Assembly (NCBI GenBank): GCA_946611595.1
Contig: CAMODY010000001.1
Coordinates: forward strand, 1-56,913
Reading direction: 5' to 3'
Source: an uncultured Clostridia bacterium
Lineage (GTDB): Bacteria; Bacillota; Clostridia; Lachnospirales; Lachnospiraceae
Length of the DNA: 56,913 bases
The position numbers were made by a program, and so were the translations under genes. The notes beneath the pieces are model-generated. The model was not told the origin of the DNA. It did no database searches and saw only the letters and a list, made by a program, of their open reading frames with translations. Position 1 is the first letter of the stretch; the number at the start of each line of letters is the position of its first letter. Below, in pieces: positions 40,912 to 56,508 of this stretch.

Positions 40912-43593
40912 TTATTCCGTTGACGTCTCATCAGTGTCTTCGCTTCCGGTATCCTCAGTTGGATCCGTTGACGTCTTGGCATCCTCTTCAGCTTTTCGCT
41001 TCGACTCTTCTTCTGCCCGGCTCTTCGACTCCCATTCCGCCGTATGGATCGTACACTTATCTTTTGGAGCTGCGTACTCACTATCGGCAGTCGTGCCTTT
41101 CGCCTCGCCTCCGGTTACATCCATCGGCCTTGTTCTGCATACAAGTGTGGTCGTCTTCGGGCAATACTCTGTCGGAAGTTTCTTAGACTCTTCACAGACT
41201 GTGCAGCTGGTATGTACATCACAGGAACCGCCCGGAACCGTTCCCTCTGCAAAGTATTCACTGATAACAGTAGAGCCGCCCGGATCTTTGTCGCAAAGAT
41301 CACCAACCGGAAGTTTACCGGACTTCTTGCAGATTGCAGCCTGTACGATACCGCCGGTCATCTCAAACTCGCCTCCGGTCTTGCCCATTGCCTCGCAGAC
41401 CTGATTCATGATCCTTGCCCACATATATTCGTGGTAGCTTCCGCCCATCTCGATACTTCTGTTCTCGTCGTATCCTGTCCAGATGGAAGCTGCAAGGCCG
41501 TTCGGTACATAACCACAGAACCAAAGATCCTTGTCGTCTGTTGTCGTACCGGTCTTACCTGCTGCCGGAGTTCCGGTATCCCAAAGCTGGCAGGCTGTAC
41601 CTGTACCGCTGTTAACAACATCCTGCATTGCGCTGGTAAGAAGGCTGGCTGTGCTCTCTTTAATAACTGTATGTGTTTCAGGCGTATTATCTAAAACAAC
41701 GGTTCCGTCCATTGCTACGATCTTCGTATAAAGGACCGGTTCTAAATAATTACCTTTGTTAGCAATTGTTCCGAATGCGGCTGTGATCTCAAGGTTTGTA
41801 ATACCATTTGTGATACCACCAAGAGCCGTTGCCACATGCTCATCGTTCTGCGGATCGATCGTTGAGAAACCAAAACTCTGCAGATACTGAATTCCTAAGT
41901 AAGGCCCAATATCATAAAGTGTCTTAACCGCAAGAACGTTCATAGAATCACGGATACCATCGCGGACTGTACTAAGGCCTCTGTAGGAATCGCCCCACCA
42001 GTTATGAACGTCACGGTTAATATTACCGCCATAATGGAACGGAGAGTCATCGATTGCCGTACCTAAAGTATAGCCTGCAGCATCTATAGCCGGAGCATAT
42101 GCAGAAAGTACCTTGAAGCAGGATCCCGGCTGTCTTGTTGTATCCTTCGCTCTGTTAAGAGTTAAGTTCTGGGTTTTTTCTCCACGGCCGCCGCAAAGAG
42201 CAAGGACCTGTCCGGTCGTGTAATCCATGACAGTAAAGGAGACCTGAGGCTGGATCGTATAAACCGTATTTTCATAGCTGATCACATCGCCTTCTTTAAT
42301 ATAGTAATCCTTAAACTGCTGGATTGCTGCATCGGCATCTTCCGTGCTGTAGTAATCGTGTTTGTATTCGTTTCTATCTGTCTGGTTGTTATAGAAGTTG
42401 AATTCTCCTAAAACATCCTCTTTATAGCGGGTAATATCTCTTTGATTCAGATATTCGGTCGTTCCATCCGGATGCTCAACCGTAAGATCCCAACTGATCG
42501 CATAAGTGCTGTCTCCCGGATAGTTATCCCAGTTGTTAACCTCTCTGTCTACAATCTCCTGAACGGTTGGATTCTGTGTTGCATAAACAGTAAGACCACC
42601 TGTGTAGAGCATGTTGTATGCCTGTGCATAACTATAGCCGCCCTTTTCCTGAAGATCATCGATCAGGTCATCAACAAGGGAATCGACAAAGTAGGAGTAC
42701 AGGGAGTTGCCCTGGCTCTGTGCGTTATCACTGACACCTGCATAGACATCTTCCGCCCATGCCGCATCATATTCTTCCTGAGTGATGTGGCCGTTCTTCA
42801 GCATCCTGTCTAAGCATGCCTCCATTCTCTGGCGGTTCTTTTCAGGGAAGCGGGCCGGGTTATTTGCACTCGGGTTCTGTGTGATCGCAGCTATGACGGC
42901 ACACTGTGCAATATCAAGCTGGGAAACATCTTTATTGAAATAATACTTGGAAGCGATCTTAACACCATAGTTACCACCGCCTAAGTTGATAGTATTCAGG
43001 TAGTTGATCAGGATTTCTTCCTTACTCATCTCCTTTTCAAGACCTAAAGCTAAGATCTGCTCCTGAATTTTTCTTCGAAGAAGGGATCCTTTAGAACGCT
43101 CAAAACCACCGGTCTCAAAGACGTTGTTTTTGATCAGCTGCTGCGTAATGGTAGAAGCACCCTGACTGTCATGATCTTTAATGATGCTCCACACCGCTCT
43201 GGCAATACCCTTTAAATCGACACCGTTATGCTCATAGAAACGTTCGTCCTCAAGATCGATGAAAGCATATTTCAGCGCCTCAGGAATCTCATCTAAGGAA
43301 GCTTCGATTCTCTTTGCGCTGGCAGCGGAAAGCTGAACGATCTGATTGCCATTCGCATCCAGGATCGTCGTCGGATACATCGTAGGCACAACTGTAACTT
43401 CACTCAGAGAAGGAGTGGATTTTGCAATACCAACAACAACACCTAAACCTGTGCAAAGAACGATACAGATAATTGCAAGTATTGTAAGTAAAACGTAGCG
43501 GATAATCCTGACTACGATGCTCGTTTTTTTCTTTTTCTTCCCCGAATTGAGGTTTTTCTGTTTTGCCTGTACTTCTTCGGAATTAAATTTCAT
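40912..43593 (-). CDS. Class A penicillin-binding protein (GT51 transglycosylase plus transpeptidase) with acidic C-terminal tail
   Basis: 893 aa with an N-terminal TM, the GT51 motifs EDERFYEHNGVD and GASTITQQL, and the transpeptidase motifs SCFK and KTGTT. The C-terminal extension is Cys-rich then Glu/Asp/Thr-rich. Confidence 0.9.
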   Translation of the reverse strand: MKFNSEEVQAKQKNLNSGKKKKKTSIVVRIIRYVLLTILAIICIVLCTGLGVVVGIAKSTPSLSEVTVVPTMYPTTILDANGNQIVQLSAASAKRIEASLDEIPEALKYAFIDLEDERFYEHNGVDLKGIARAVWSIIKDHDSQGASTITQQLIKNNVFETGGFERSKGSLLRRKIQEQILALGLEKEMSKEEILINYLNTINLGGGNYGVKIASKYYFNKDVSQLDIAQCAVIAAITQNPSANNPARFPEKNRQRMEACLDRMLKNGHITQEEYDAAWAEDVYAGVSDNAQSQGNSLYSYFVDSLVDDLIDDLQEKGGYSYAQAYNMLYTGGLTVYATQNPTVQEIVDREVNNWDNYPGDSTYAISWDLTVEHPDGTTEYLNQRDITRYKEDVLGEFNFYNNQTDRNEYKHDYYSTEDADAAIQQFKDYYIKEGDVISYENTVYTIQPQVSFTVMDYTTGQVLALCGGRGEKTQNLTLNRAKDTTRQPGSCFKVLSAYAPAIDAAGYTLGTAIDDSPFHYGGNINRDVHNWWGDSYRGLSTVRDGIRDSMNVLAVKTLYDIGPYLGIQYLQSFGFSTIDPQNDEHVATALGGITNGITNLEITAAFGTIANKGNYLEPVLYTKIVAMDGTVVLDNTPETHTVIKESTASLLTSAMQDVVNSGTGTACQLWDTGTPAAGKTGTTTDDKDLWFCGYVPNGLAASIWTGYDENRSIEMGGSYHEYMWARIMNQVCEAMGKTGGEFEMTGGIVQAAICKKSGKLPVGDLCDKDPGGSTVISEYFAEGTVPGGSCDVHTSCTVCEESKKLPTEYCPKTTTLVCRTRPMDVTGGEAKGTTADSEYAAPKDKCTIHTAEWESKSRAEEESKRKAEEDAKTSTDPTEDTGSEDTDETSTE

Positions 43594-43798: not shown

Positions 43799-44449
43799 AT
43801 GTGTGCTTATGTTGTTTCCGGTCAGTCGGAATCTAAAATCGAGGTCAAAAAATCGATTTTTATTGCGACAGTAAGAGAAGTTCATACCGAAGAAGAGGCG
43901 CTATCCTTCTTAGAAGAGATGAGGAAGGCTTATTGGGATGCAAAGCACAATTGCTATGCCTATATTATCGGGGAGCGCAGTGAGATCCGCCGTTTTTCCG
44001 ACGACAAAGAACCTCAGGGAACTGCCGGGAAGCCGATCTTAGAGGCAATCTCTGCCGGTGGTTTTCAAAATACTGCCGTCGTTGTGACCCGCTACTTTGG
44101 CGGCGTGCTCCTGGGAACAGGCGGACTCGTAAGAGCTTACAGCCAGGCCGCATCTTTAGGCCTTTCAGAATCGGCCCATTTTCCTGTAGAAAGAGGAAAA
44201 CTTATATCCGTAGGCTGCAGTTATTCGGATTCCGGAAAGATTCAGTACCTGATCAACACCGCAAATATTCCTTTGATGGATTCTGTCTATGCTGAAGATG
44301 TGCATTTTACTTTAGCAGTCGCTGAATCCCTGGTCGACGGAACAGTGAAAAAAATAACAGAAGCCGCAAATGGTGCAGCTTCTGTTCAAATCTTAGAAGA
44401 TATTCATTTTATTCAGGACGGCTCATCGGCCAGACTCTATCAGTTCTGA
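43799..44449 (+). CDS. yigZ: YigZ / IMPACT-family protein (UPF0029)
   Basis: 216 aa with EVKKSIFIATV ... KHNCYAYIIG ... FSDDKEPQGTAGKPIL ... VVVTRYFGGVLLGTGGLVRAY. Confidence 0.85.
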   Translation: MCAYVVSGQSESKIEVKKSIFIATVREVHTEEEALSFLEEMRKAYWDAKHNCYAYIIGERSEIRRFSDDKEPQGTAGKPILEAISAGGFQNTAVVVTRYFGGVLLGTGGLVRAYSQAASLGLSESAHFPVERGKLISVGCSYSDSGKIQYLINTANIPLMDSVYAEDVHFTLAVAESLVDGTVKKITEAANGAASVQILEDIHFIQDGSSARLYQF

Positions 44450-44452
44450 TCT

Positions 44453-47110
44453 TCAGCCTTTCATTTTTTCGATCTGCGTGAGCACTTTTTCAAGCTGTGC
44501 AGCATATTTTTCACGCTTTTCTTTCTCCTGATTAATCTTTGCTTCCGGTGCCTTGCTTACAAAGTTCGGATTATTCAGCATTCCGTCGGAACGTTTCAGT
44601 TCCCCTTCAAGACGCTTCTTCTCTGTTTCCAGTCTTGCGATTTCTTTTTCTTTATCAACAAGCTCTTCAAGCGGGATATAAACAGCCACATCTGCAAGCT
44701 GTACGCTGACAGCATCATCTCCGATACCGTTCATATCACCCTGAACATATACTTCCGCTGCCTTACCAAGGGAAGCAAAGAAAATCTTACCGTTTTCAAA
44801 GATATCCCGTACATGCTCTTTTTCGCTTACCACATAAACCGGAACTTTTCTTCCAAGCGGCACATTCATGTCGGATCTTACCGTACGGATTCCGCGAACC
44901 GCTTCCTTGATCATCTCAGTTGCTTCTTCACAGTCTGCAAAGTCCATTGCCTCTGTATATTCCGGCCATGCAGAGATCATGATCGACTCTTCCGGTGCTT
45001 CAAAAAGAACATAAGGTCTTAATGTTGTGTAGATCTCTTCTGTTACAAACGGCATATATGGATGCAGAAGCTTAAGGGAGATCATCAGGACCTTCTGCAG
45101 AGTATAAAGCGCTGCCTCTTTAGAGTCATTCTCCCCGTAAAGACGCGGCTTAACCATCTCAATATACCAGTCGCAGAACTCCTCCCAAATGAACTCATAC
45201 AGTTTATCTGCTGCAATACCAATCTCATATTTATCAAGATTCTCTGTAACTTCTTTTGCAAGACGGTTTGCCTTTGAAAGGATCCATTTGTCTGCATCCT
45301 GAAGTTTGTCAGTCGGGCATGCTTCTTTAAGGCCATCTTCCGGCATATTCATCATGATGAAACGGGAAGCGTTCCAGATCTTATTAGCAAAGTTACGGCT
45401 CGCCTGTACTCTCTCATAATAGAAACGCATATCATTTCCAGGAGAGTTTCCGGTTGCCAAAGTAAATCGGAGTGCATCTGCGCCGTACTGGTCGATAACT
45501 TCGAGAGGGTCAATACCATTTCCTAAGGACTTACTCATTTTCCTTCCCTGATCGTCCCTTACAAGACCAGTGAAAAGCACGGAGTCAAACGGACGATCGC
45601 CCATTTGCTCATAACCGGAGAAGATCATTCGGATGACCCAGAAGAAGATGATATCATAACCGGTGATCAAAAGATTTGTCGGATAGAAATACTCAAGCTC
45701 CTTGGTCTTTTCCGGCCAGCCAAGTGTTGAAAATGGCCAGAGTGCAGAAGAAAACCAGGTGTCTAAGCAGTCTTCATCCTGCTTAAAACTTGTGCAGCCG
45801 CAATCCGGACACTTATCCGGCATTGCCTTCGCAACAACCATCTTTCCGCATTCATTGCAGTAATAAGCCGGAATACGGTGTCCCCACCAAAGCTGTCTGG
45901 AAATACACCAGTCACGAATATTATCCGTCCAGTTATGATACAGCTTGCTCATACGCGGAGGGATCAGTTTTACTTCGCCCTCGTCAACTGCTTTAATAGC
46001 CGGTTTGATCATCTCATCCATTTTTACGAACCACTGCTCTTTTACCATAGGCTCAATAACAGTAGAACAACGGTCATGATAACCGACTGCATGCTCATGA
46101 TCTAAAACTTTAACAAGGAGACCAAGCTCTTCCAGATCTTTTACAACAGCCTCTCTTGCCTCATAAGTTCCCATGCCGGCATATTTACCGCCGTTTTCAT
46201 TGATAGATCCGTCATCATTAAATACGCAGATCTCTTCAAGCCCATGCTTTCTTCCGAGCTCGAAGTCGTTCGGGTCGTGTGCCGGAGTTACTTTCATCGC
46301 ACCGGTTCCAACCTCCAGATCGATATACTCATCTGCAATGATCGGAATTTCTCTATCCATCAGAGGAAGGATGCAGGTCTTTCCGATATACTTCTGATAT
46401 CTCGGATCATCCGGATGAACAACGACCGCTGTATCGCCAAGCATGGTCTCCGGACGCGTTGTTGCAATTTCAATAAAATCATCCTCACCCTTGATCGGAT
46501 AATTGATATGCCAGAAATGTCCGGCAGTATCTTTATGCTCTACTTCCGCATCACTGACAGAAGTCTGGCATTTCGGACACCAGTTGATGATCTTGGTGCC
46601 TTTATAGATCCAGCCTTTTTCATAAAGCTTTACAAAAACTTCAAGGACAGCATCCGATACGCCTTCATCCATCGTAAAGCGCTCTCTGTCCCAGTCAGCG
46701 GAGCTGCCAAGCTTTTTAAGCTGATTTACGATACGTCCGCCGTATTCTTCTTTCCATTCCCAGGCGCGCTTTAAGAAGCCTTCTCTTCCAAGGTCTTCTT
46801 TATGAAGGCCTTGTTTTTTCAGTTCCTCAATGATCTTTACTTCCGTTGCAATTGATGCGTGGTCGCAGCCAGGCTGCCAAAGGGCATTATAGCCCTGCAT
46901 TCTTTTCTGACGGATCACAACGTCCTGAAGTGTGTTATTCAGCGCATGCCCCATATGAAGCTGTCCGGTGATGTTCGGAGGCGGCATGATGATCGTGAAT
47001 GGCTTTTTGCTTTCATCCACTTCAGCATGAAAATACTTCTTTTCGATCCAATTGTCATAGATTCTCTGCTCAATTGCTTTCGGGTCGTAGGTTTTAGCTA
47101 GTTCTTTCAT
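44453..47110 (-). CDS. valS: Valine--tRNA ligase
   Basis: 885 aa with PPPNITGQLHMGHAL (HIGH), KMSKSLGN (KMSKS) and a C-terminal coiled-coil. Its stop lies 3 nt from the convergent yigZ stop. Confidence 0.95.
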   Translation of the reverse strand: MKELAKTYDPKAIEQRIYDNWIEKKYFHAEVDESKKPFTIIMPPPNITGQLHMGHALNNTLQDVVIRQKRMQGYNALWQPGCDHASIATEVKIIEELKKQGLHKEDLGREGFLKRAWEWKEEYGGRIVNQLKKLGSSADWDRERFTMDEGVSDAVLEVFVKLYEKGWIYKGTKIINWCPKCQTSVSDAEVEHKDTAGHFWHINYPIKGEDDFIEIATTRPETMLGDTAVVVHPDDPRYQKYIGKTCILPLMDREIPIIADEYIDLEVGTGAMKVTPAHDPNDFELGRKHGLEEICVFNDDGSINENGGKYAGMGTYEAREAVVKDLEELGLLVKVLDHEHAVGYHDRCSTVIEPMVKEQWFVKMDEMIKPAIKAVDEGEVKLIPPRMSKLYHNWTDNIRDWCISRQLWWGHRIPAYYCNECGKMVVAKAMPDKCPDCGCTSFKQDEDCLDTWFSSALWPFSTLGWPEKTKELEYFYPTNLLITGYDIIFFWVIRMIFSGYEQMGDRPFDSVLFTGLVRDDQGRKMSKSLGNGIDPLEVIDQYGADALRFTLATGNSPGNDMRFYYERVQASRNFANKIWNASRFIMMNMPEDGLKEACPTDKLQDADKWILSKANRLAKEVTENLDKYEIGIAADKLYEFIWEEFCDWYIEMVKPRLYGENDSKEAALYTLQKVLMISLKLLHPYMPFVTEEIYTTLRPYVLFEAPEESIMISAWPEYTEAMDFADCEEATEMIKEAVRGIRTVRSDMNVPLGRKVPVYVVSEKEHVRDIFENGKIFFASLGKAAEVYVQGDMNGIGDDAVSVQLADVAVYIPLEELVDKEKEIARLETEKKRLEGELKRSDGMLNNPNFVSKAPEAKINQEKEKREKYAAQLEKVLTQIEKMKG

Positions 47111-47897
47111 AATACTCTTCTTTCCAGTTATCTATTATAGTCTGGCGGTTAATGCCATTTTCAAAATCATATATAAAGTTGACCGTTTCGTCACTAGTCT
47201 CGATCTCTCTTTTAAGCGCACCAACGCGGGCTCTGATCGTCTCTAAGGTCTCATCTGAAATATTATACTTGATGATCGTATTTAAAAGTTCTTCTTCATC
47301 GTTATTTACAAGTGCCATATAAACACAAGCTCTTGCATAGAGCGGATCCGGATACAGATCATAGGCATAGCCGAAAAAGCTGTTGGCGTTACGGCTCATA
47401 AAAAGCCGTGCATAGATCACACCGATCGAATAAGCTACCTTTGCATAGAAGGCTTCGCTTAAGGCTTCTTTTTCCATTCCGGAAAGAATTTCAAAATAAA
47501 CTCTTAAAGCCGATTCCAGTTTTCCCATTTTATAGTAGCCATCCGCTTCGATCCGAAGTCGTTCTGCTTCCGACATAATGTCAATGTTCATGACATAAGC
47601 TGCAACAACACTCAGCTCACTGCCGGAATAATAATGACTTTCTTTCAGAAGGTAGCGGATAAAATCTTTAAGATCCGCATTCTGCATCGACAGCCTTCTA
47701 AGTTCCTCTGCAATATCTTCCCTTCCAAGTTCCTTTTCAATATAGTCAAAAAGTTCATCGCAGAAAAACTCCCGATAAACCAGGTTAATATGATTGAAGA
47801 TAAAGAAATTGATCTCTTCCAGAGAATAGACATTTGTCTTTATCGCCTCAATATAATATGGAGTTTGTGACTGTCTTCCACAGACCTGAATTGCCAT
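47094..47897 (-). CDS. Hypothetical all-helical, TPR-like protein (267 aa)
   Basis: ATG with SD AAGGA. Helical-hairpin-like segments (YYKMGKLESALRVYFEIL, AKVAYSIGVIYARLFMSRNANSFFGYAYDLYPD, LYARACVYMALV) suggest TPR-type repeats. There is no TM or signal peptide. The 3' end overlaps the valS start by 17 nt. Confidence 0.6.
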   Translation of the reverse strand: MAIQVCGRQSQTPYYIEAIKTNVYSLEEINFFIFNHINLVYREFFCDELFDYIEKELGREDIAEELRRLSMQNADLKDFIRYLLKESHYYSGSELSVVAAYVMNIDIMSEAERLRIEADGYYKMGKLESALRVYFEILSGMEKEALSEAFYAKVAYSIGVIYARLFMSRNANSFFGYAYDLYPDPLYARACVYMALVNNDEEELLNTIIKYNISDETLETIRARVGALKREIETSDETVNFIYDFENGINRQTIIDNWKEEYYERTS

Positions 47898-47900
47898 TGT

Positions 47901-49181
47901 TTATCCTTCTAACTCGCTTGTTAAATCCACCTGCTTTGAAACTTCAAATCCACTTGACGGGAACAGATCTCCAAAGCCTTTATCCCGAACGCATACTTCA
48001 AAGCAGTATTCATTCATATATTGAAGTTCGATCTCAATCCGAGTCGCCTTATGCGGTCTTCTCGGAATCTGGGAAATATCGATATCAAAACTGGTTCTTT
48101 TGTTCTCGATCAGAGAAGTTACATAAAAACGGATCACATCCGGCTCACTTACGATAAAATCCATCCGCATTCCTGCATCGAACCAGTCCTTAGGCGCCCT
48201 GCTTAGATTAAGAAGGAGCGTTTCATCTTTATGTTTTGCCTCCACCGAGATCGTATGTTTTGTCCTTCCGGCACACACGATATTATAATCCTCTCCCGGA
48301 TGCTGGATCCTTAAAAGCCCGGAAAGGCACGCACCTTTTGCATATAAGTTGTTTCCTTTAAACGCTCTGTTCGTTTCAGAAACCTTGCGGAGTGTTTTTC
48401 CAAACCAAAGATTTGAAAATCCTTCTCCCGTGAAAAAGACGCTGGAGATCCGGCTCTCTGCAGTGATCTCTTCATAAAGCGCAGTAAGCTTTTGATCCAT
48501 CTGCTCCATCAGCACGCCGTTTCCCATATCTGCCATGGAAAAATCAGCCGTATGCATCCGTTCACTGATGTAGACCAGATAATCCTGTCCGCTTCTTGTG
48601 ACTGTCAGAACTTTCTCATAAAAGCCATCCGGCGTAAAGTCAAACAAAACCGAGCCCTTATTCCAGATGGACGGATCCTCGTTCAACAAATAATATGCAA
48701 AACTTTCCGCACAGGTCTGAAGTTTCACTTTTTCAAGCGGAAGCTTTAAGATCCTGAACACGTCATTGATCGTCTGCTTGATCTCAAGCGTTACTCTTCT
48801 TAAGTTAATTGTAATATTTTCCACGCCCATAACAGATGTGGCCATCTGCGTAAGCTCAATAATCTTACCAAAGAAAACAGCTAAAAGCTGTGTGTAGGAA
48901 TAATCCTGTCCGTTGATCGTACACACTCCGCCCAGAAAAACATTTTCAAGAAAATCTTTATACAAACGCTCTCCTGTTTTTTCTGCATACTCAACTGCTG
49001 GCTGTCCGATGATCCAGTCCTTGGTCTCATGATTATAGCAAAGAGCCGTCGGGATCAGATATCGCATCGTCTCACCGCCATAGGAAATCGACTCCGGACG
49101 CTCATGGCGGTTGGAGTAATAGCTTGCCTGACAATATTTACCTGCATAATCGATCCCTATGATCAGTCCGCGTTTATCCAT
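47901..49181 (-). CDS. Hypothetical Hsp70/actin-fold-like protein with degenerate nucleotide-binding loops and a beta-rich C-domain (426 aa)
   Basis: LIIGIDYAGKYCQ, VLFDFTPDGFY, VFFTGEGFSNLW and NLYAKGACLSG are collinear with the Hsp70 phosphate-1, phosphate-2, adenosine and hinge motifs. The C-terminal RIEIELQYMNEYCFEVCVRDKGFG resembles the DnaK SBD strand pattern. Confidence 0.55.
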   Translation of the reverse strand: MDKRGLIIGIDYAGKYCQASYYSNRHERPESISYGGETMRYLIPTALCYNHETKDWIIGQPAVEYAEKTGERLYKDFLENVFLGGVCTINGQDYSYTQLLAVFFGKIIELTQMATSVMGVENITINLRRVTLEIKQTINDVFRILKLPLEKVKLQTCAESFAYYLLNEDPSIWNKGSVLFDFTPDGFYEKVLTVTRSGQDYLVYISERMHTADFSMADMGNGVLMEQMDQKLTALYEEITAESRISSVFFTGEGFSNLWFGKTLRKVSETNRAFKGNNLYAKGACLSGLLRIQHPGEDYNIVCAGRTKHTISVEAKHKDETLLLNLSRAPKDWFDAGMRMDFIVSEPDVIRFYVTSLIENKRTSFDIDISQIPRRPHKATRIEIELQYMNEYCFEVCVRDKGFGDLFPSSGFEVSKQVDLTSELEG

Positions 49182-49183
49182 GA

Positions 49184-52100
49184 TTAAAATAATCTTTCCA
49201 TCAATTTATCTTTTACGAAATACTCTTTGGCCGCAAGGTTTAAAGCGAGCATATTTCCGGTCTCTTTCATCTGAATAATATTGTTCAATTCTGAATATCT
49301 GGAATCATCCTCTTTGATGTCCAGATCAGCATAAGAGACGCTCACCGGTTCTTCGCCATTTACTGAGTATTCCACACGTTCCCCGTAGAACAAGGTGATA
49401 TATTTTGCATAACAGCCTTCAAAGATCTCTGCCATCTGTTCTTCTTTATGGATCGTCTTTTCCCCTGAGATGATGTCATAAACGATCCTTCCGGCATTAC
49501 CAAAACAAGAAGCAATCACCGCATTGGAAAGAGCTGCAGGCAGGCTGAAATATTTGCCATAGCCTTTAAACTCTTCGAGCATGATGCTGCGGCCGACAAG
49601 GCCTTTCAACTGTACTTCAATCATCCTCGTTCTGCGTTTTCCGGAGATATCTTTATCTGACATATATTTAAGATATGCTACGAGAACAGCTGTCGGGAAG
49701 TTTTCCCTTTGCATGAGGTCGTTCTCAATGTAACGGAAAAAGTCGGTATCCTTTTCTTCTCCCTGATACAAATACCTTTCCGCTTTATATGTCATATATG
49801 TTTTTTTCAGGTCGGCATCAGTGCCTTCTGTATAATACTTTGCAAAGATCTGCGGGATCAGATCGGAGTTTTCTCCGCTTTCAATCGCCCTTCTTAAGAT
49901 CCTCTCCGGAAGGTTTCCGAAGTCTTCGCCGTATGCTCTTCCGGCACGATACAGTTCTTCTAAGACTTCCGGCTTATCGTTATAGTTCTGCACCATGTAT
50001 TTATAAATACGCGGGTCAAAGGTCGTCTTTAAAAAGCTCTGCTCACACATGCTTAAAAGAAGCGCATCGTCACGATAATTAACCAGCTCGACCAGAGCGG
50101 AAGAAAGTCTTGCAACACTTTGCTCTGAAACATGTGCAAATCCTTCCTCGCGGATCTTTTCATACGCATCCCTGAAAAGTGTCCGCTCGATCATAACTTC
50201 TATCAGTTTGCCTTTTGTTTCCGGCTCCAGATCATATTTGAAGAATGCCAGAAGTTCATCATATACATTGCGGTCTCTTAAATTCCGTGAGAAATAAAGG
50301 ACCGTATCATTGATCAGCTTTTTTACATAACCGTTTCTGAAAGAAGCTGTGCTCATCCGGTTTGTCATGTAATTTAAGATCTCCGCCGGATCTTTATAGC
50401 CTCTAAGGAGCGGCATAGTATCGCTCATCAGCATATAATCGCTGATCGGAACGCCTTTTACACAGATATCAATATATTCGCCGCTGCTTAAGAATTCCTT
50501 CTTTTCATAATCGATGTTGGCATAGATATTGCCTGTGATATCTTTAAATAAGATTTCCGCATTATGCGAATAAACTTTAACTCTGGCCTTTCCTTTATTC
50601 AAAGGAATATCCTGATAAACATTCAGTTCATCATGGAAGACCATGACATTTCGCATCCTGTCGTTATGACAGCAGATCTCTTTCGTCGCAATGATCTCAA
50701 AGAGACGCACACGCATATTGTGAGTCAGTTTATCGGACGCAATGATATCTTTATAAATAACTGCAAGATCCTGATCCACGATTCCCTGTGACATCTGCTG
50801 ATCTGCATACTCAATTATTTTTTGTTCATAAGCCCTGTAATACTCGGGGCGTTTTTCTTTATTCGTAACAATGTTCGCATAGAAATACCGGCGGTAATCT
50901 AAGAGGCTTTCCGCACCTGAAGAAAAATACTCCATGATCCTTGCAGGAAGCGGTTCGTAGACGGATTCAGGTCTTGTAAAAATATAGTAACTGAAGATAC
51001 CCGGAATATCGTCTAAATATTCACGGACCGCAATGTCATAATAAGAGCCGGCCTCTTCGCTTCTGTCATCTTTTACGATCAAAAGTCTTGCGATCACCCG
51101 AAGAAGATCTCTGGTCGGATAGCGTTCATATAAATACTTCAATACCTTTTCTGCAAGCGCGAGGTTTTTCTCTGAAAGCTCTGCCTCTGTCAGCATCATA
51201 AAGACCTGTGTCACTCTTGCGCTGAGTGCAGAAGAAGAATAATCAAGTTTTCTGGCAAAGTTTAAAATCTGAAGTTCAAAATCACTTGCATCGGAGAAGT
51301 ATCCCGGATACTGCATGAAAATTTCAAGAGCCTCAAAATAAAGGATCGGACTTGTTGAACCTCCGCCAAACTCTGCAAAAATATCGTCTAATTTTAAGCC
51401 CGGATTCTCTTCGTAATTAGAATCCATCTGGAAAAGGATCCACAGAAGCTGCCAGCTTGGCTGTCTTTCATAAATCGTACGGATCCTTCCTTTGATCTCT
51501 TCAGAAGATTTCCGGTCTCTTTCATAAATTGCGCGGACATACAGAAAATAGCAATTAAGAGCGAGGTCTGATCGCTGCAGTTTCTGTATCACTTCCGCCA
51601 TATATTCAAGGAGACTTGCAGCCTCCACATAACTCTCGATCTCAATATAAAGCTGAGCTTTATAAAGCATTAAGAACATGGACATACGGTCAATGCCGTC
51701 AATCTCTCCGATCAGGGCAAGAGATTGTTTTGCCCAGTCAGACGAATCCATCAGTCCTTTGCGAAAATCAAAATAAACTTTCGCAAGGTCCATATAAAGC
51801 TGCTTTGGATTATAGTCATCCAGCATGACACGTACCGGAACATCAATGGTTACCGGAACTTTAATCTGCTGGGATGCGGTTTCAAAAGTGATGCAGGAAT
51901 AATTTCTTCCTCCATGAAGTTTGCTTTCGGTGATCGTGATCGGAAGATCAAAGGAGCCTCCCGGGAAAACATCACTCGTGATCACGCGCCTTGAAAGCGT
52001 TATAAAATCATCCGGGCAAAAGGCCTCAATCTCCATGTAGCCATTTTGCGTAATGACCAGATGAAGCACGGTCTCTGTATCGCCCGGAAGGCCGGAAAAC

Positions 52101-52225
52101 TCAATAGAAGAAGGCGTCACAGCAAAAGCTGCCGCCTCTTTCTTCCCTTTGGCAACCATGTATTCTTCACGCGCGATATTCTTATTTCGGCCCAGTTTCA
52201 AGGCACTTTGAAGCAAATCAGTCAT
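49184..52225 (-). CDS. Hypothetical 1013-aa cytoplasmic protein: N-terminal Ig-like beta-sandwich plus long alpha-helical repeat regions
   Basis: The ATG at 52225 overlaps the rarA stop (ATGACTGA). Residues ~33-130 (FAVTPSSIEFSGLPGDTETVLHLVITQNGYMEIEAF...ITFETASQQIKVPVTIDV) have an alternating beta pattern. The rest is largely helical with two beta-rich inserts. I saw no TM, signal peptide, P-loop or catalytic motif. Confidence 0.6.
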   Translation of the reverse strand: MTDLLQSALKLGRNKNIAREEYMVAKGKKEAAAFAVTPSSIEFSGLPGDTETVLHLVITQNGYMEIEAFCPDDFITLSRRVITSDVFPGGSFDLPITITESKLHGGRNYSCITFETASQQIKVPVTIDVPVRVMLDDYNPKQLYMDLAKVYFDFRKGLMDSSDWAKQSLALIGEIDGIDRMSMFLMLYKAQLYIEIESYVEAASLLEYMAEVIQKLQRSDLALNCYFLYVRAIYERDRKSSEEIKGRIRTIYERQPSWQLLWILFQMDSNYEENPGLKLDDIFAEFGGGSTSPILYFEALEIFMQYPGYFSDASDFELQILNFARKLDYSSSALSARVTQVFMMLTEAELSEKNLALAEKVLKYLYERYPTRDLLRVIARLLIVKDDRSEEAGSYYDIAVREYLDDIPGIFSYYIFTRPESVYEPLPARIMEYFSSGAESLLDYRRYFYANIVTNKEKRPEYYRAYEQKIIEYADQQMSQGIVDQDLAVIYKDIIASDKLTHNMRVRLFEIIATKEICCHNDRMRNVMVFHDELNVYQDIPLNKGKARVKVYSHNAEILFKDITGNIYANIDYEKKEFLSSGEYIDICVKGVPISDYMLMSDTMPLLRGYKDPAEILNYMTNRMSTASFRNGYVKKLINDTVLYFSRNLRDRNVYDELLAFFKYDLEPETKGKLIEVMIERTLFRDAYEKIREEGFAHVSEQSVARLSSALVELVNYRDDALLLSMCEQSFLKTTFDPRIYKYMVQNYNDKPEVLEELYRAGRAYGEDFGNLPERILRRAIESGENSDLIPQIFAKYYTEGTDADLKKTYMTYKAERYLYQGEEKDTDFFRYIENDLMQRENFPTAVLVAYLKYMSDKDISGKRRTRMIEVQLKGLVGRSIMLEEFKGYGKYFSLPAALSNAVIASCFGNAGRIVYDIISGEKTIHKEEQMAEIFEGCYAKYITLFYGERVEYSVNGEEPVSVSYADLDIKEDDSRYSELNNIIQMKETGNMLALNLAAKEYFVKDKLMERLF

Positions 52226-53597
52226 CTCTGTTTTTCAGCCTGTTAAGCCTTTCTTTCATGGTTTTTTCATAGCCGAGGTTCCCCGGTTCATAAAAGACGG
52301 TATCCGTCAGTTCATCAGGCAGATACTGCTGTTTCACATAATGCTCCGGATAATCATGCGCATACTGATATCCGATTCCTCTGCCGATCTTTGCAGCTCC
52401 TCCATAATGCGCATCCTGTAAATGCGGAGGAACTGTTTTGATATCTGTCGTCCTTACCGTTTCAAGTGCCGCATCGATCGCCATGATCGCCGAATTGCTT
52501 TTCGGAGCACCACACACGTAAAGAACTGCTTCCGCTAAAATGATCCTGGCTTCCGGCATTCCGATCACATGAACCGCCTGCTGTGCTGCCACAGCGAGTT
52601 GCAGCGCTCTCGGGTCTGCACAGCCGACATCTTCTGCGGCGCAGATCATAATTCTTCTTGCTATAAAATTCACATCTTCTCCGGCATAAAGCATCTTTGC
52701 CAGATAGTAGATGGCCGCATCCGGGTCGCTTCCCCGCATGCTTTTTATAAACGCGGAGATCGTATCGTAATGATTATCTCCGTCTTTATCATATCTTATA
52801 TTTTTGCGCTGAACGCATTGCTCAATGACCTCACTCGTAAGGTGAATTGCCGTATCTCTGCCTTCGGCGTTCTTTGCAGATGCATTTTGAATGCTGCTTC
52901 CATCCGGAATTTTAGAAGGCTCTGTCGTCAGCACCGCAAGTTCAATCGCATTGAGCGCAGTCCTTGCATCGCCGCCCGCAAAATCACTTAAAAAATCCAG
53001 GGCGTCATCATCGATCACAGCATGATACATGCCAAGCCCTTTTTCTTTATCGGAAAGCGCTCTTAAGATAATCGCCCTGATGTCCTCCGGCTCTAACGGT
53101 TTTAGTTCATAAATCGTTGAGCGGCTGATCAGCGCGCTATTAACCTCAAAATACGGATTTTCAGTCGTTGCTCCGATCAGGATCACCGTGCCGTCTTCTA
53201 CAAACGGAAGGAGATAATCCTGCTGGGCCTTATTGAAACGGTGGATCTCATCAACAAAAAGGATCGTTTTCTTTCCGTATGCTCCGCGCTTTACCTTTGC
53301 CTCTTCTACGATCTCTACCATGTCCTTTTTCCCAGCTACAGTAGCATTAATCTGTTTAAAATCAGCAGAGGTCGTATTCGCGATCACTCTTGCAAGCGTT
53401 GTCTTTCCGGTGCCGCTCGGCCCGTAAAAAATAACGGAAGAAAGTTTATCTGCCTGAATCAGGCGGTAAAGATGACTTCCTTTTGAAAGAATATGCTTCT
53501 GGCCCATAAACTCATTCAGAGTTTGTGGACGGATACGGGAGGCAAGCGGTGCTTCTTCCTTTATCTTATTCTGATGCGCATATTCAAACAGGTCCAT
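52218..53597 (-). CDS. rarA: Replication-associated recombination protein A (AAA+ ATPase)
   Basis: 459 aa with Walker A GPSGTGKTT, Walker B LFVDEIHRFNK and the C-terminal MgsA motifs (HLQDAHYGGA, GYQYAHDY). Confidence 0.9.
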   Translation of the reverse strand: MDLFEYAHQNKIKEEAPLASRIRPQTLNEFMGQKHILSKGSHLYRLIQADKLSSVIFYGPSGTGKTTLARVIANTTSADFKQINATVAGKKDMVEIVEEAKVKRGAYGKKTILFVDEIHRFNKAQQDYLLPFVEDGTVILIGATTENPYFEVNSALISRSTIYELKPLEPEDIRAIILRALSDKEKGLGMYHAVIDDDALDFLSDFAGGDARTALNAIELAVLTTEPSKIPDGSSIQNASAKNAEGRDTAIHLTSEVIEQCVQRKNIRYDKDGDNHYDTISAFIKSMRGSDPDAAIYYLAKMLYAGEDVNFIARRIMICAAEDVGCADPRALQLAVAAQQAVHVIGMPEARIILAEAVLYVCGAPKSNSAIMAIDAALETVRTTDIKTVPPHLQDAHYGGAAKIGRGIGYQYAHDYPEHYVKQQYLPDELTDTVFYEPGNLGYEKTMKERLNRLKNRDD

Positions 53598-54980: not shown

Positions 54981-55050
54981 ATTCCGCTCCTATTTGTACC
55001 TAATTATATAGTATCCTTCAATTTCGGGTTTAAAATAAAATGATAAATGA

Positions 55051-55080
55051 TTGAAATTATTATGTCAAACGTCATATAAT
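55051..55080 (+). promoter_or_regulatory. Candidate promoter TTGAAA-N18-TATAAT ending 7 nt before the ATG at 55088
   Basis: TTGAAA lies at 55051-55056 and TATAAT at 55075-55080. There is no SD before 55088. Confidence 0.45.
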
Positions 55081-55087
55081 ATCTGCC

Positions 55088-55510
55088 ATGAAACAGAAAT
55101 CTGATGCACTTTTCAGAATATGGAGCCTGGTGATGATCCTTTCCGGGATCGTCCTGATTGCGCTGGATGGATATTTGATGGTTCTTCGCTTCAAAACTCC
55201 AGAGATATCCAGATTCTTAACGCTTATCGCCACTTTAATCCTTTTGGCCTGCGCGATAATAGAGATCGTCTGCGGGATAAAGAGCATGTCCTTCATCAGC
55301 ATGACTTCGAGAGGAAGGCGTTTCCGCGCAGTTCACTCTAAAATCCTGGCATTCAAGCGACTTTCCCTTACCGCGATCATTCTTGCTCTGCTCGAGGTCA
55401 TTCTATCCTGCATCTTCGGAATCATTTTCTGGCAGCTCGCATTGATATGCATTTTCGGCATCCTCATGCCGCTCATCGAATTATTAAGCACGAAAACGCT
55501 TCAATCCTGA
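55088..55510 (+). CDS. Small 4-TM membrane protein, hypothetical
   Basis: 140 aa from the ATG at 55088 (possibly leaderless). An alternative ATG at 55133 has GGAG 7 nt upstream. There are four hydrophobic helices and no recognisable family. Confidence 0.55.
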   Translation: MKQKSDALFRIWSLVMILSGIVLIALDGYLMVLRFKTPEISRFLTLIATLILLACAIIEIVCGIKSMSFISMTSRGRRFRAVHSKILAFKRLSLTAIILALLEVILSCIFGIIFWQLALICIFGILMPLIELLSTKTLQS

Positions 55511-56508
55511 GAAGCTGTGACCTGATTAGAGGTCGTTTCATCAAATACGATCTCCACCGTGAATTCCGGCGAAACCGCCGTTACTAAAGGCTGAAACATC
55601 TGCCAGGTACTAACGCTTGCATATTCATCAGCCATCTGGAACACCTCTGCTTCTGTCAGCTTTTCTTCCATCGATTTATAAACAGATTGCAAAAGACGGT
55701 TCTGATCTTCCGTTTTCAGTTTAATGTCCCCAAATGCTAAAAGACCTTTTTCCGTATCTTCAAATTGTGTTTTATCCAGATCAGGATTAATGTACTGAAG
55801 ACAGCTGTGCGGGATGACCACCGTAACCTGTTTCTTATCCATATCCACTTTAATGTGATCTGCATCGATACCCGCCATATCTACCGTATAAACGCCGGTT
55901 CCATAATAGGTGATCGTTTTCATCTTCGAGAAGATCTGCAGATTTCCGAGCCCGGCTTTGGTGATCGTTGTTGCAATTTCAAGCGGCTGCTCCATAACGA
56001 TCAACTCCTGATGCTGGCTGGCCTCTCCTAAAATAGCATCTTGAAAATCCACTGCCGTATAAGTGAAAGGGCCATTTTCCAGGACTTCATCCGCCGTTGT
56101 CTGCGAGGTATGGTTTGTTCCGAAGATCATTCCGTTTGAGAGCTTTCCAATCAGGAAAACTGCCAAGGCACCAACAATAAGGCCAATTACGATCCCAAGC
56201 CAGAACCGCCCATTCCCCTTTGTCTTTTTAGACGATTTGATGCCGTCTGCTGCAACATCTACTAAGGCTCCAACAAGGGAAGCGCCGCCACCTGCTAAAG
56301 CAGAGGCGGAACTTTCTTTACTGCTACCTTCTTTTTCGGAAGCCTGCTCTTTGATTTCCTGCTTCAGCGCATTCTTGATCCGCTCTTTTTCTGCTTCTTT
56401 CTGAGCAGCTTCTTTCGCAGCCTGAGCCTGTTTCAAAGCTTCCTTTTGTTTTTTTGTCTTTTCGTTTTCTACAGTATTTGCCGAGGTGTCAATTTTGATC
56501 TCCGACAT
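55501..56508 (-). CDS. Bitopic membrane protein: K/E/A-rich N-terminal region, TM, C-terminal domain resembling DUF4230
   Basis: 335 aa with SD AAGGAG. It has a charged N-terminus (KQKEALKQAQAAKEAAQKEAEKERIK), a TM (FWLGIVIGLIVGALAVFLIG), then a beta-rich domain (TYYGTGVYTVDMAGIDADHIKVDMDKKQVTVVIP). My family recognition is tentative. Confidence 0.6.
   Translation of the reverse strand: MSEIKIDTSANTVENEKTKKQKEALKQAQAAKEAAQKEAEKERIKNALKQEIKEQASEKEGSSKESSASALAGGGASLVGALVDVAADGIKSSKKTKGNGRFWLGIVIGLIVGALAVFLIGKLSNGMIFGTNHTSQTTADEVLENGPFTYTAVDFQDAILGEASQHQELIVMEQPLEIATTITKAGLGNLQIFSKMKTITYYGTGVYTVDMAGIDADHIKVDMDKKQVTVVIPHSCLQYINPDLDKTQFEDTEKGLLAFGDIKLKTEDQNRLLQSVYKSMEEKLTEAEVFQMADEYASVSTWQMFQPLVTAVSPEFTVEIVFDETTSNQVTASQD

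Follow-up and report, generated by a model that had tools for sequence, protein, structure and literature searches.

A conserved DUF5717-DUF5716-TPR gene unit of Lachnospiraceae that includes an extremely reduced Hsp70 derivative

What is encoded between rarA and valS in a 56,913-nucleotide (nt) stretch of DNA from an uncultured Clostridia bacterium of the Lachnospiraceae (contig CAMODY010000001.1; this whole stretch is called the window), and do the three genes found there belong together? An initial annotation had delimited three minus-strand open reading frames (ORFs) of 1013, 426 and 267 aa, here called A, B and C, with four junctions between rarA and valS, all exact to the base, and had proposed them as a module of its own. 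The two parts of the answer that carry this report are that A-B-C, often followed by a fourth gene D, is a conserved gene unit, and that B is a genuine but extremely reduced Hsp70 derivative lacking the functional hallmarks of its family. The three genes of the window are the following.

49184..52225, minus strand: gene A, 1013-aa ORF; DUF5717 scaffold protein, short form with a single N-terminal immunoglobulin-like (Ig-like) domain
47901..49181, minus strand: gene B, 426-aa ORF; DUF5716, lidless and highly divergent Hsp70 homolog
47094..47897, minus strand: gene C, 267-aa ORF; partner of B containing tetratricopeptide repeats (TPRs), without a Pfam family of its own

A, B and C are real genes under strong purifying selection: relative to their orthologs in locus L005, the ratios of non-synonymous to synonymous substitution rates (dN/dS) are 0.039, 0.044 and 0.015 respectively. 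None of them has a predicted membrane segment. NCBIfam holds no model for A, B, C or D, and sequence searches of the PDB with the four proteins returned nothing specific beyond weak matches of B to DnaK and generic TPR matches of C.

B belongs clearly to Pfam DUF5716_C (PF18980; E = 3e-71, 240 bits for a gathering cut-off of 34.7). Its relationship to Hsp70 appears in the structure. The AlphaFold model, built with 55 homologs, has a predicted local distance difference test score (pLDDT) of 92 and a predicted TM-score (pTM) of 0.89, and its top 50 Foldseek matches in the PDB are all members of the Hsp70 family (DnaK, BiP, Hsc70, mortalin, Hsp110 and Ssz1). DnaK 7kru ranks first (E = 4e-20; query TM-score, TMq, 0.61), and the alignments extend over the nucleotide-binding domain (NBD) as well as the beta part of the substrate-binding domain (SBD-beta). 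The model is closer to docked, ATP-type states of DnaK (TMq 0.58-0.61) than to the undocked structures 2kho and 2v7y (TMq 0.44-0.46). Two domains can be delimited in B.

48297..49181, minus strand: B residues 1-295, reduced Hsp70-type NBD, from the hhalign mapping to E. coli DnaK
47922..48284, minus strand: B residues 300-420, Hsp70 SBD-beta-like sandwich, from Foldseek and a residual motif; the protein ends here without a lid

Sequence similarity is much fainter. Pfam HSP70 (PF00012) does not match B even at E <= 1, but when the family profile of the 55 homologs is searched against PDB sequences, DnaK proteins occupy the top five places (E = 0.019-0.5). In this profile search the B motif LsGlP.RP..tR....v.v.D.GFG aligns with L.GI.PAPRG.PQIEV...V.AKD..TG of the DnaK SBD-beta; R375, R381, D400, G402, F403 and G404 are the invariant residues of this C-terminal motif. 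Remnants of three Hsp70 motifs can be read along the protein: IGID, NPDEAVA.GAA in the form GNNLY.KGA, and PRG...IEV...D..G of the SBD-beta.

To see what B has kept and lost, we mapped it onto E. coli DnaK by hhalign and counted the residues in 78 homologs. In the actin/Hsp70 fold two acidic residues coordinate the Mg-nucleotide. Both are largely kept in B: D11, the equivalent of DnaK D8, is Asp in 73 of the 78 homologs, and D181, the equivalent of D194, is Asp in 59 and Glu in 9. In the adenosine loop the first glycine, G252, is invariant and G254 invariant or nearly so. The phosphate-1 and phosphate-2 loops, by contrast with these positions, are degenerate throughout the family. The equivalents of DnaK T11 and T12 are variable or acidic, that of K70 is Asp, Glu or Thr, the GGG-T199 segment has become S/T-x-E/D-G, and E171 is replaced by Gln in 52 homologs. 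Whole segments are missing as well, namely DnaK residues 81-101, which form part of lobe IB, and 62 residues within 236-332, in lobe IIB. The residues equivalent to the peptide arch of DnaK are not conserved. Finally, the chain ends 0-10 residues past the last strand in all these homologs, leaving neither a helical lid nor a conserved acidic tail.

B thus has two of six Hsp70 features, the actin-like two-lobed NBD and the beta-sandwich substrate domain that follows it, and lacks the other four: the helical lid, the ATPase motifs, a match to the Pfam model, and J-domain or nucleotide exchange factor (NEF) partners in the module or its flanks. The ATPase motifs considered were DLGTTNS, K70, E171, DLGGGTFD and GG.TR.P, of which B conserves only the equivalents of D8, D194 and the first adenosine-loop glycine. 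As to the partners, no J-domain or GrpE was found in A, C or D, nor among the identified recurrent flanking gene families. B should therefore not be classed as a DnaK-type chaperone.

Do A, B and C travel together? A scan using one genome per species found a B relative in at least 569 species genomes, and the best 80 of them are almost all Lachnospiraceae or genera of this family (among them Blautia, Butyrivibrio, Eisenbergiella, Anaerocolumna, Catonella and Parasporobacterium). Gene order was assayed by profile searches of the ORFs in 84 loci. In all of the approximately 75 divergent loci with enough contig, A, B and C lie in the same order on one strand, with B identity falling to 23% and median gaps of 15 nt between A and B and 11 nt between B and C. 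In distant loci, too, the third gene is a true homolog of C, in spite of only 24-27% identity (E = 7e-22 and 2e-16).

Two contigs come from bins that bear the names of genera outside the Lachnospiraceae, Ruthenibacterium lactatiformans for L016 (CAVHKC010000123.1) and Anaerotignum sp. for L017; both have Parasporobacterium-like B and C, with B identities of 44% and 39% respectively. The 4.9-kb contig of L016 looks like a binning error rather than a spread outside the family.

The second argument for a unit comes from protein C. An exhaustive profile search (E <= 1e-10) yielded 982 clusters of C at 50% identity, nearly all of which are separate proteins of 240-295 aa. Single-chain B-C fusions occur in at least six divergent clusters (L082, P0086, P0277, P0314, P0340 and P0346), all with DUF5716_C followed by the C domain and with the N-terminal domain of C placed directly after the last strand of B. 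Those of P0277, P0314, P0340 and P0346 are 702-715 aa long and only 22-25% identical to that of P0086. That members so divergent carry the fusion argues strongly for a contact of C with the end of the beta domain of B. The domains of C in the window are as follows.

47583..47897, minus strand: C residues 1-105, family-specific N-terminal domain with the motif PYYI...N.YS.EE and invariant E27 and E28, from the family alignment
47298..47570, minus strand: C residues 110-200, two TPR motifs, from the family profile and Pfam

The N-terminal domain has no match in the PDB or Pfam. The TPR assignment is a property of the family: the C of the window taken alone stays below the threshold of Pfam TPR (E = 0.089), while over residues ~110-200, where two repeats are recognisable, the profile of the family finds consensus TPR proteins at E <= 1e-13. 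Pfam TPR_2 is matched by 13 of 28 members of the family, and the Blautia ortholog exceeds the cut-offs of TPR_1 and TPR_8. The C-terminal helical part ends in a WK.EY motif. Two ways of linking C to Hsp70 biology were discarded. C is not a sequence homolog of the Hsp70 lid (hhalign probability 0.2%), and its TPRs cannot bind an EEVD-type tail on B, which ends at its last strand without a conserved acidic tail.

The same loci show that the unit is often larger. In 49 of them a gene D of ~390-410 aa directly follows C at a median distance of 12 nt (L003:12156-13319, L047:9134-10318, L057:9135-10361 and 46 further loci). Its product begins with a coiled coil, continues with two transmembrane (TM) helices and ends in a C-terminal helical region, and has no relative in Pfam, NCBIfam or the PDB. 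The window has no gene D, since a six-frame hmmsearch found none at E <= 10; D is likewise absent at the locus in Blautia and in the clade with short A. Among the loci where A is complete and the contig reaches far enough downstream for D to be seen, 46 have a long A with D, 13 a long A without D and 11 a short or intermediate A without D. D never accompanies a short A in this set. Its absence at the locus in the clade of the window and in Blautia indicates that membrane tethering is not obligatory.

A-B-C(-D) is thus a conserved gene unit. The co-occurrence and synteny that the initial annotation had put forward for checking were found in all the loci with enough contig; its "three-gene module" describes the window, while most lineages add D after C. 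Its view of the three genes as packed like one unit calls for a finer distinction: the junctions are as it gave them, but six genes of the window are equally tight, and it is synteny across genomes and gene fusion, not spacing in the window, that mark A-B-C as a unit.

Protein A is the non-enzymatic scaffold of the set. It matches Pfam DUF5717_N (PF18984; E = 8e-148, 494 bits), over profile positions 167-871 only, and DUF5717 (PF18983; E = 3e-46, 159 bits) over its residues 720-1013, the gathering cut-off being 25 in both cases. Its AlphaFold model (pLDDT 88.5) begins with short N-terminal helices preceding an Ig-like sandwich, and shows the following succession of domains.

51839..52129, minus strand: A residues 33-129, Ig-like beta-sandwich of PapD/ASH type, from the model and local Foldseek matches
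50687..51808, minus strand: A residues 140-513, first TPR-like alpha-solenoid, from the helix array in the model
50495..50686, minus strand: A residues 514-577, small all-beta domain between the solenoids, from the secondary structure of the model
49526..50485, minus strand: A residues 581-900, second alpha-solenoid, from the model; its C-terminal part lies within Pfam DUF5717
49190..49522, minus strand: A residues 902-1012, beta-sandwich (902-964) followed by a helical hairpin (976-1012), from the model

The first sandwich finds local Foldseek matches in Caf1M, the ASH domain of OCRL1 and hydin-like central-pair proteins. For the entire protein Foldseek gave only generic TPR/HEAT scaffolds (Ski3, Naa15, Ctr9, IFT-A and importins; TMq <= 0.17) and no specific structural relative. 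The conserved residues of A are mostly Gly, Pro, aromatic or aliphatic and form no catalytic motif. Long forms of A (~1180-1200 aa) carry an additional N-terminal Ig-like sandwich within DUF5717_N; the match of the window's A starts at profile position 167 of this family, and this first Ig-like domain is therefore absent from it. The N-terminal extension of the long form does not contain a J-domain, since it is this second Ig-like beta-sandwich.

The architectures predicted from sequence by the initial annotation hold well: an Hsp70/actin fold with degenerate nucleotide loops for B, as borne out by Foldseek and the 78 homologs; a giant cytoplasmic Ig-like and alpha-solenoid protein without membrane segment for A, as seen in the AlphaFold model and by Foldseek; and a TPR-like helical protein for C, which is correct for residues ~110-200. 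Its suspicion that gut-Firmicute domains of unknown function (DUFs) were involved was also right, A being DUF5717_N plus DUF5717 and B DUF5716_C.

We then consider the surroundings of the three genes in the window.

52218..53597, minus strand: rarA (mgsA), 459 aa, Pfam MgsA_C (E = 3e-72); upstream neighbour, context outside the module
44453..47110, minus strand: valS, 885 aa, Pfam tRNA-synt_1, Anticodon_1 and Val_tRNA-synt_C; downstream neighbour, context outside the module
52218..52225, minus strand: overlap of 8 nt between the rarA stop and the A start (ATG), ATGACTGA
49182..49183, minus strand: A/B intergenic gap of 2 nt
47898..47900, minus strand: B/C intergenic gap of 3 nt, with a GAAGGA ribosome-binding site within the end of B
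47094..47110, minus strand: overlap of 17 nt between the stop region of C and the valS start
55040..55068, minus strand: near-perfect match to a sigma-70-like promoter (TTGACA-17-TATCAT), the best one found, ahead of the citrate-synthase-like gene; putative start of the operon, from a consensus scan only
44356..44386, minus strand: strong intrinsic-terminator-like hairpin with a 13-bp stem and a T run, just after valS; putative operon end from a consensus scan only

Only 6 nt separate the citrate-synthase-like gene from rarA, and the packing of rarA and valS is as tight as that of A, B and C. In the consensus scan the six genes, from the citrate-synthase-like gene through valS, are bracketed by a single promoter-like and a single strong terminator-like site. 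Spacing in the window therefore points to a six-gene operon and not specifically to the trio. The whole 57-kb window has no match to any Rfam family, hence no T-box or other riboswitch, and control of valS or of the operon by such an element was discarded. ARAGORN found no tRNA in the window, and the region holds no meaningful repeats. A T-box is the usual leader for valS; here valS lacks it and its start lies within the end of gene C, so that its expression appears coupled to the upstream genes.

The other flanking genes identified in the window by Pfam encode citrate-synthase-like, YigZ-like and class A penicillin-binding proteins (PBPs). The class A PBP (Transgly and Transpeptidase domains) is an 893-aa ORF at 40912-43593 on the minus strand, with an 895-aa ortholog in L002 for which the contig table lists no precomputed Pfam domain; the PBP gene lies 3 kb from the module in the window and in close relatives. 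On the other side, a 140-aa multi-pass membrane ORF of no family (55088-55510, plus strand) diverges from the operon promoter and adjoins a gene for a DUF4230 protein with a long Lys/Glu-rich N-terminus (55501-56508, minus strand). A similar membrane ORF of 167 aa recurs upstream in eight related loci.

Between lineages the flanks differ: Claveliimonas has genes for an aminotransferase and an ABC transporter there, other lineages have htpG and purB. Some neighbours recur all the same. Distant members included, rarA immediately precedes A in 15 loci and lies within two genes of it in another; valS is found downstream of the module in 12 loci. L086 has rarA three genes before A, and valS after D. 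The order rarA...ABC(D)...valS is therefore probably ancestral and the module vertically inherited. No divisome or envelope gene is consistently adjacent across the loci.

The gene htpG is a neighbour in 10 loci. Heat-shock regulation of the module was nevertheless discarded, no CIRCE or CtsR box being found within 400 nt upstream of A in 73 loci. The scan itself works, since it recovered perfect CIRCE sites (TTAGCACTC-N9-GAGTGCTAA) before htpG in three loci (L003:4199-4227, L064 at ~1158 and L066 at ~889), which serve as positive control. In L003 the CIRCE is ~115 nt upstream of htpG, a clear terminator separates htpG from A, and A has its own -10 element. It is thus likely that htpG is regulated by HrcA in these Lachnospiraceae and the module is not.

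Mobility and defence were also assayed. PADLOC (PADLOC-DB v2) gave no family for A, B or C at E <= 1, neither the module nor its flanks showed McrB, McrC, a nuclease, a protease or any other effector, and tblastn of B found no plasmid copies; with PADLOC negative and plasmid copies lacking, a defence system was rejected. Five "Bacteriophage sp." records match B by tblastn. The two that were examined, L086 (MT835486.1) and L087 (MT835719.1), are UNVERIFIED Bacteriophage sp. scaffolds of human faecal virome that contain A-B-C-D, together with rarA and valS in L086 and with FeoB and an MCP gene in L087. Such genes identify both as bacterial chromosomal fragments and not phage, and phage carriage is ruled out for these two (MT835486 and MT835719). 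In L086 valS is read as two ORFs, a split that probably reflects a frameshift or an assembly error. G+C content is flat across the region of the window, the module matching its surroundings. That these genes sit among housekeeping genes and not in an island, as the initial annotation held, agrees with the rarA and valS flanks, the flat G+C content, the lack of PADLOC or plasmid hits and the bacterial nature of the two phage-titled records examined. The module looks like a constitutive housekeeping function, not one of stress or defence, because its G+C content matches, PADLOC and plasmid searches are negative, rarA and valS recur, dN/dS is low and CIRCE and CtsR boxes are absent.

What could the products do together? 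We tentatively favour a reading in which A, B and C form one cytoplasmic complex with B as a pseudo-Hsp70 adaptor that does not cycle or is weakly modulated by nucleotide. Non-cycling is proposed because the phosphate loops and the K70 equivalent are lost, lobe IIB and part of lobe IB are deleted, and there is neither a lid nor a J-domain or GrpE. B would then be a static or weakly nucleotide-modulated adaptor binding a peptide or partner, in the manner of Ssz1 or CnuD. C may sit at the position of the Hsp70 lid and supply a TPR surface, and A may be the platform that recruits a client or further partners via its Ig-like and solenoid surfaces. In most lineages D would tether the assembly to the membrane; in the clade of the window A would have been shortened and D lost from the locus.

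Several points weigh against this proposal. D11, D181 and G252/G254 are largely kept, so B may still bind nucleotide. Because the arch residues are unconserved, canonical peptide binding by B is uncertain. The docked conformation of B is a prediction of the AlphaFold model. The likeness of C to a lid is an analogy of position purely, and no A-B fusion was seen; a contact between A and B is argued from synteny.

It is rather unlikely that B has remained a chaperone driven by ATP, with an active site of unusual make-up, C acting as its co-chaperone or detachable lid and A selecting a dedicated client, the module then actively folding, assembling or extracting one specific substrate, in most lineages at the membrane via D. 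The retention of D11, D181, G252 and G254, the preserved Hsp70 NBD-SBD-beta architecture and interdomain arrangement, a TPR partner reminiscent of Hsp70 co-chaperones and htpG adjoining the module in 10 loci would all fit. But the phosphate-1 and -2 loops are acidic or variable in place of Gly and Thr, K70 is lost, lobe IIB is truncated, there is no J-domain, NEF or EEVD-like tail, and Pfam HSP70 misses B even at E <= 1. Nor does htpG help much, with no CIRCE or CtsR operator before the module and, in L003, a terminator between htpG and A.

An interpretation that we consider unlikely is a membrane-associated structural scaffold (e.g. for envelope growth, division or the positioning of a machine), in which the Hsp70-like fold would be an interaction brick without any chaperone client. 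The linkage of the module to the two-TM coiled-coil D in 49 loci, the 1000-1200 aa repeat scaffold A, the unconserved arch residues of B, the constitutive housekeeping context and the class A PBP gene 3 kb away in the window and close relatives are consistent with it. D is absent at the locus in the clade of the window and in Blautia, however, genes of the divisome or envelope do not recur consistently next to the module, and B resembles Hsp70, not the filament-forming actin-like families.

An anti-phage or conflict system comparable to type III CoCoNuT with CnuD is very improbable. A degenerate Hsp70-like NBD/SBD with helical repeats fits the description of CnuD (PMC11090510), and TPR and Ig-like domains are common in sensor proteins; but PADLOC gives no match, the module and flanks lack McrB, McrC, nuclease, protease or other effector, synteny with rarA and valS extends to distant genera without any anomaly of G+C content, plasmid copies are lacking, the apparent phage copies examined are bacterial contamination, and purifying selection is very strong. 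The idea that A, B and C are unrelated neighbours sharing an operon with rarA and valS is hardly credible: the citrate-synthase-like gene, rarA and valS are packed equally tightly in the window, but flanks change between lineages while A-B-C stay together, and B-C fusions exist.

New with respect to the literature searched are the operon and the Hsp70 relationship; A and B are already catalogued as DUFs, and C and D are unnamed. The system was thus rightly called undescribed as regards its function and its kinship to Hsp70, and not as regards its families, which Pfam lists. The accompanying picture of a dedicated chaperone, assembly or surveillance machine stays a matter of interpretation, with no heat-shock operator and, for surveillance or defence, no support.

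Taken further, DUF5717-DUF5716-TPR(-2TM) could be an unrecognised machine, spread across Lachnospiraceae and built on a pseudo-Hsp70 whose lid is replaced by a separate TPR protein, serving a lineage-specific core process without counterpart among characterised bacterial chaperones; this wider proposal is possible but doubtful. If it were true, the process might be e.g. membrane-proximal assembly or quality control of a particular client. A module of three to four genes that the whole family conserves under strong purifying selection likely serves a core process that is invisible in model organisms. B is in itself a natural experiment, an Hsp70 cut to NBD and beta domain with a degraded nucleotide site, its lid position apparently taken by a separate, sometimes fused, TPR protein. 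Identifying its binding partner would add to the few known derivatives of Hsp70 that do not cycle (Ssz1 and CnuD). It would also give a function to two Pfam DUFs and to the two families without a name, each of the four having from hundreds to thousands of members.

How does the module compare with known systems? B and A are clear members of Pfam DUF5716 and DUF5717, entries that carry no function, and the literature searched in full text contains no description of the operon, of the C and D families, or of the relationship between DUF5716 and Hsp70.

Like canonical DnaK (PF00012), B has a two-lobed actin-like NBD followed by a beta-sandwich substrate domain. It is much smaller (426 aa for 638 aa in DnaK), similar at a level below Pfam detection, and without lid, C-terminal tail, lobe IIB, part of lobe IB, phosphate loops, K70 and T199. 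The module moreover has no DnaJ or GrpE partner and no CIRCE control.

A TPR protein dedicated to an Hsp70-type protein recalls the pairs formed by Hop or CHIP. The TPRs of Hop/Sti1, CHIP, SGTA and Tah1 are three-repeat carboxylate clamps that bind an EEVD tail. The profile of C does match TPR domains of Hop/CHIP/SGTA/Tah1 type, weakly and among many others, but C has only two recognisable repeats and is coupled to B either as its neighbour or by being fused to the end of the beta domain. Since B does not finish in an EEVD-like tail, the analogy breaks down.

Ssz1, of the yeast ribosome-associated complex, is an atypical Hsp70 paired with Zuotin, a J-protein. By analogy B would resemble it as an Hsp70 paralog without normal ATPase cycle or lid function that is a stable subunit of a hetero-oligomer, and the Ssz1 structures 6sr6_C and 7x3k_B are among the Foldseek matches of B. 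The difference lies in the partner, since A and C have no J-domain; B and Ssz1 are related only at the level of the Hsp70 family.

CnuD of type III CoCoNuT has a Hsp70-like NBD/SBD with degenerate motifs and HEAT-like repeats (PMC11090510). Compared by description only, it shares with the module the combination of a degenerate Hsp70-like NBD/SBD with helical repeats. It differs in acting with a McrB-like GTPase (CnuB) and the DUF2357 McrC-like CnuC in defence islands; no domain of CnuB or CnuC type was found in the module or its flanks. By analogy, then, Ssz1 and CnuD would be the closest functional analogues of B.

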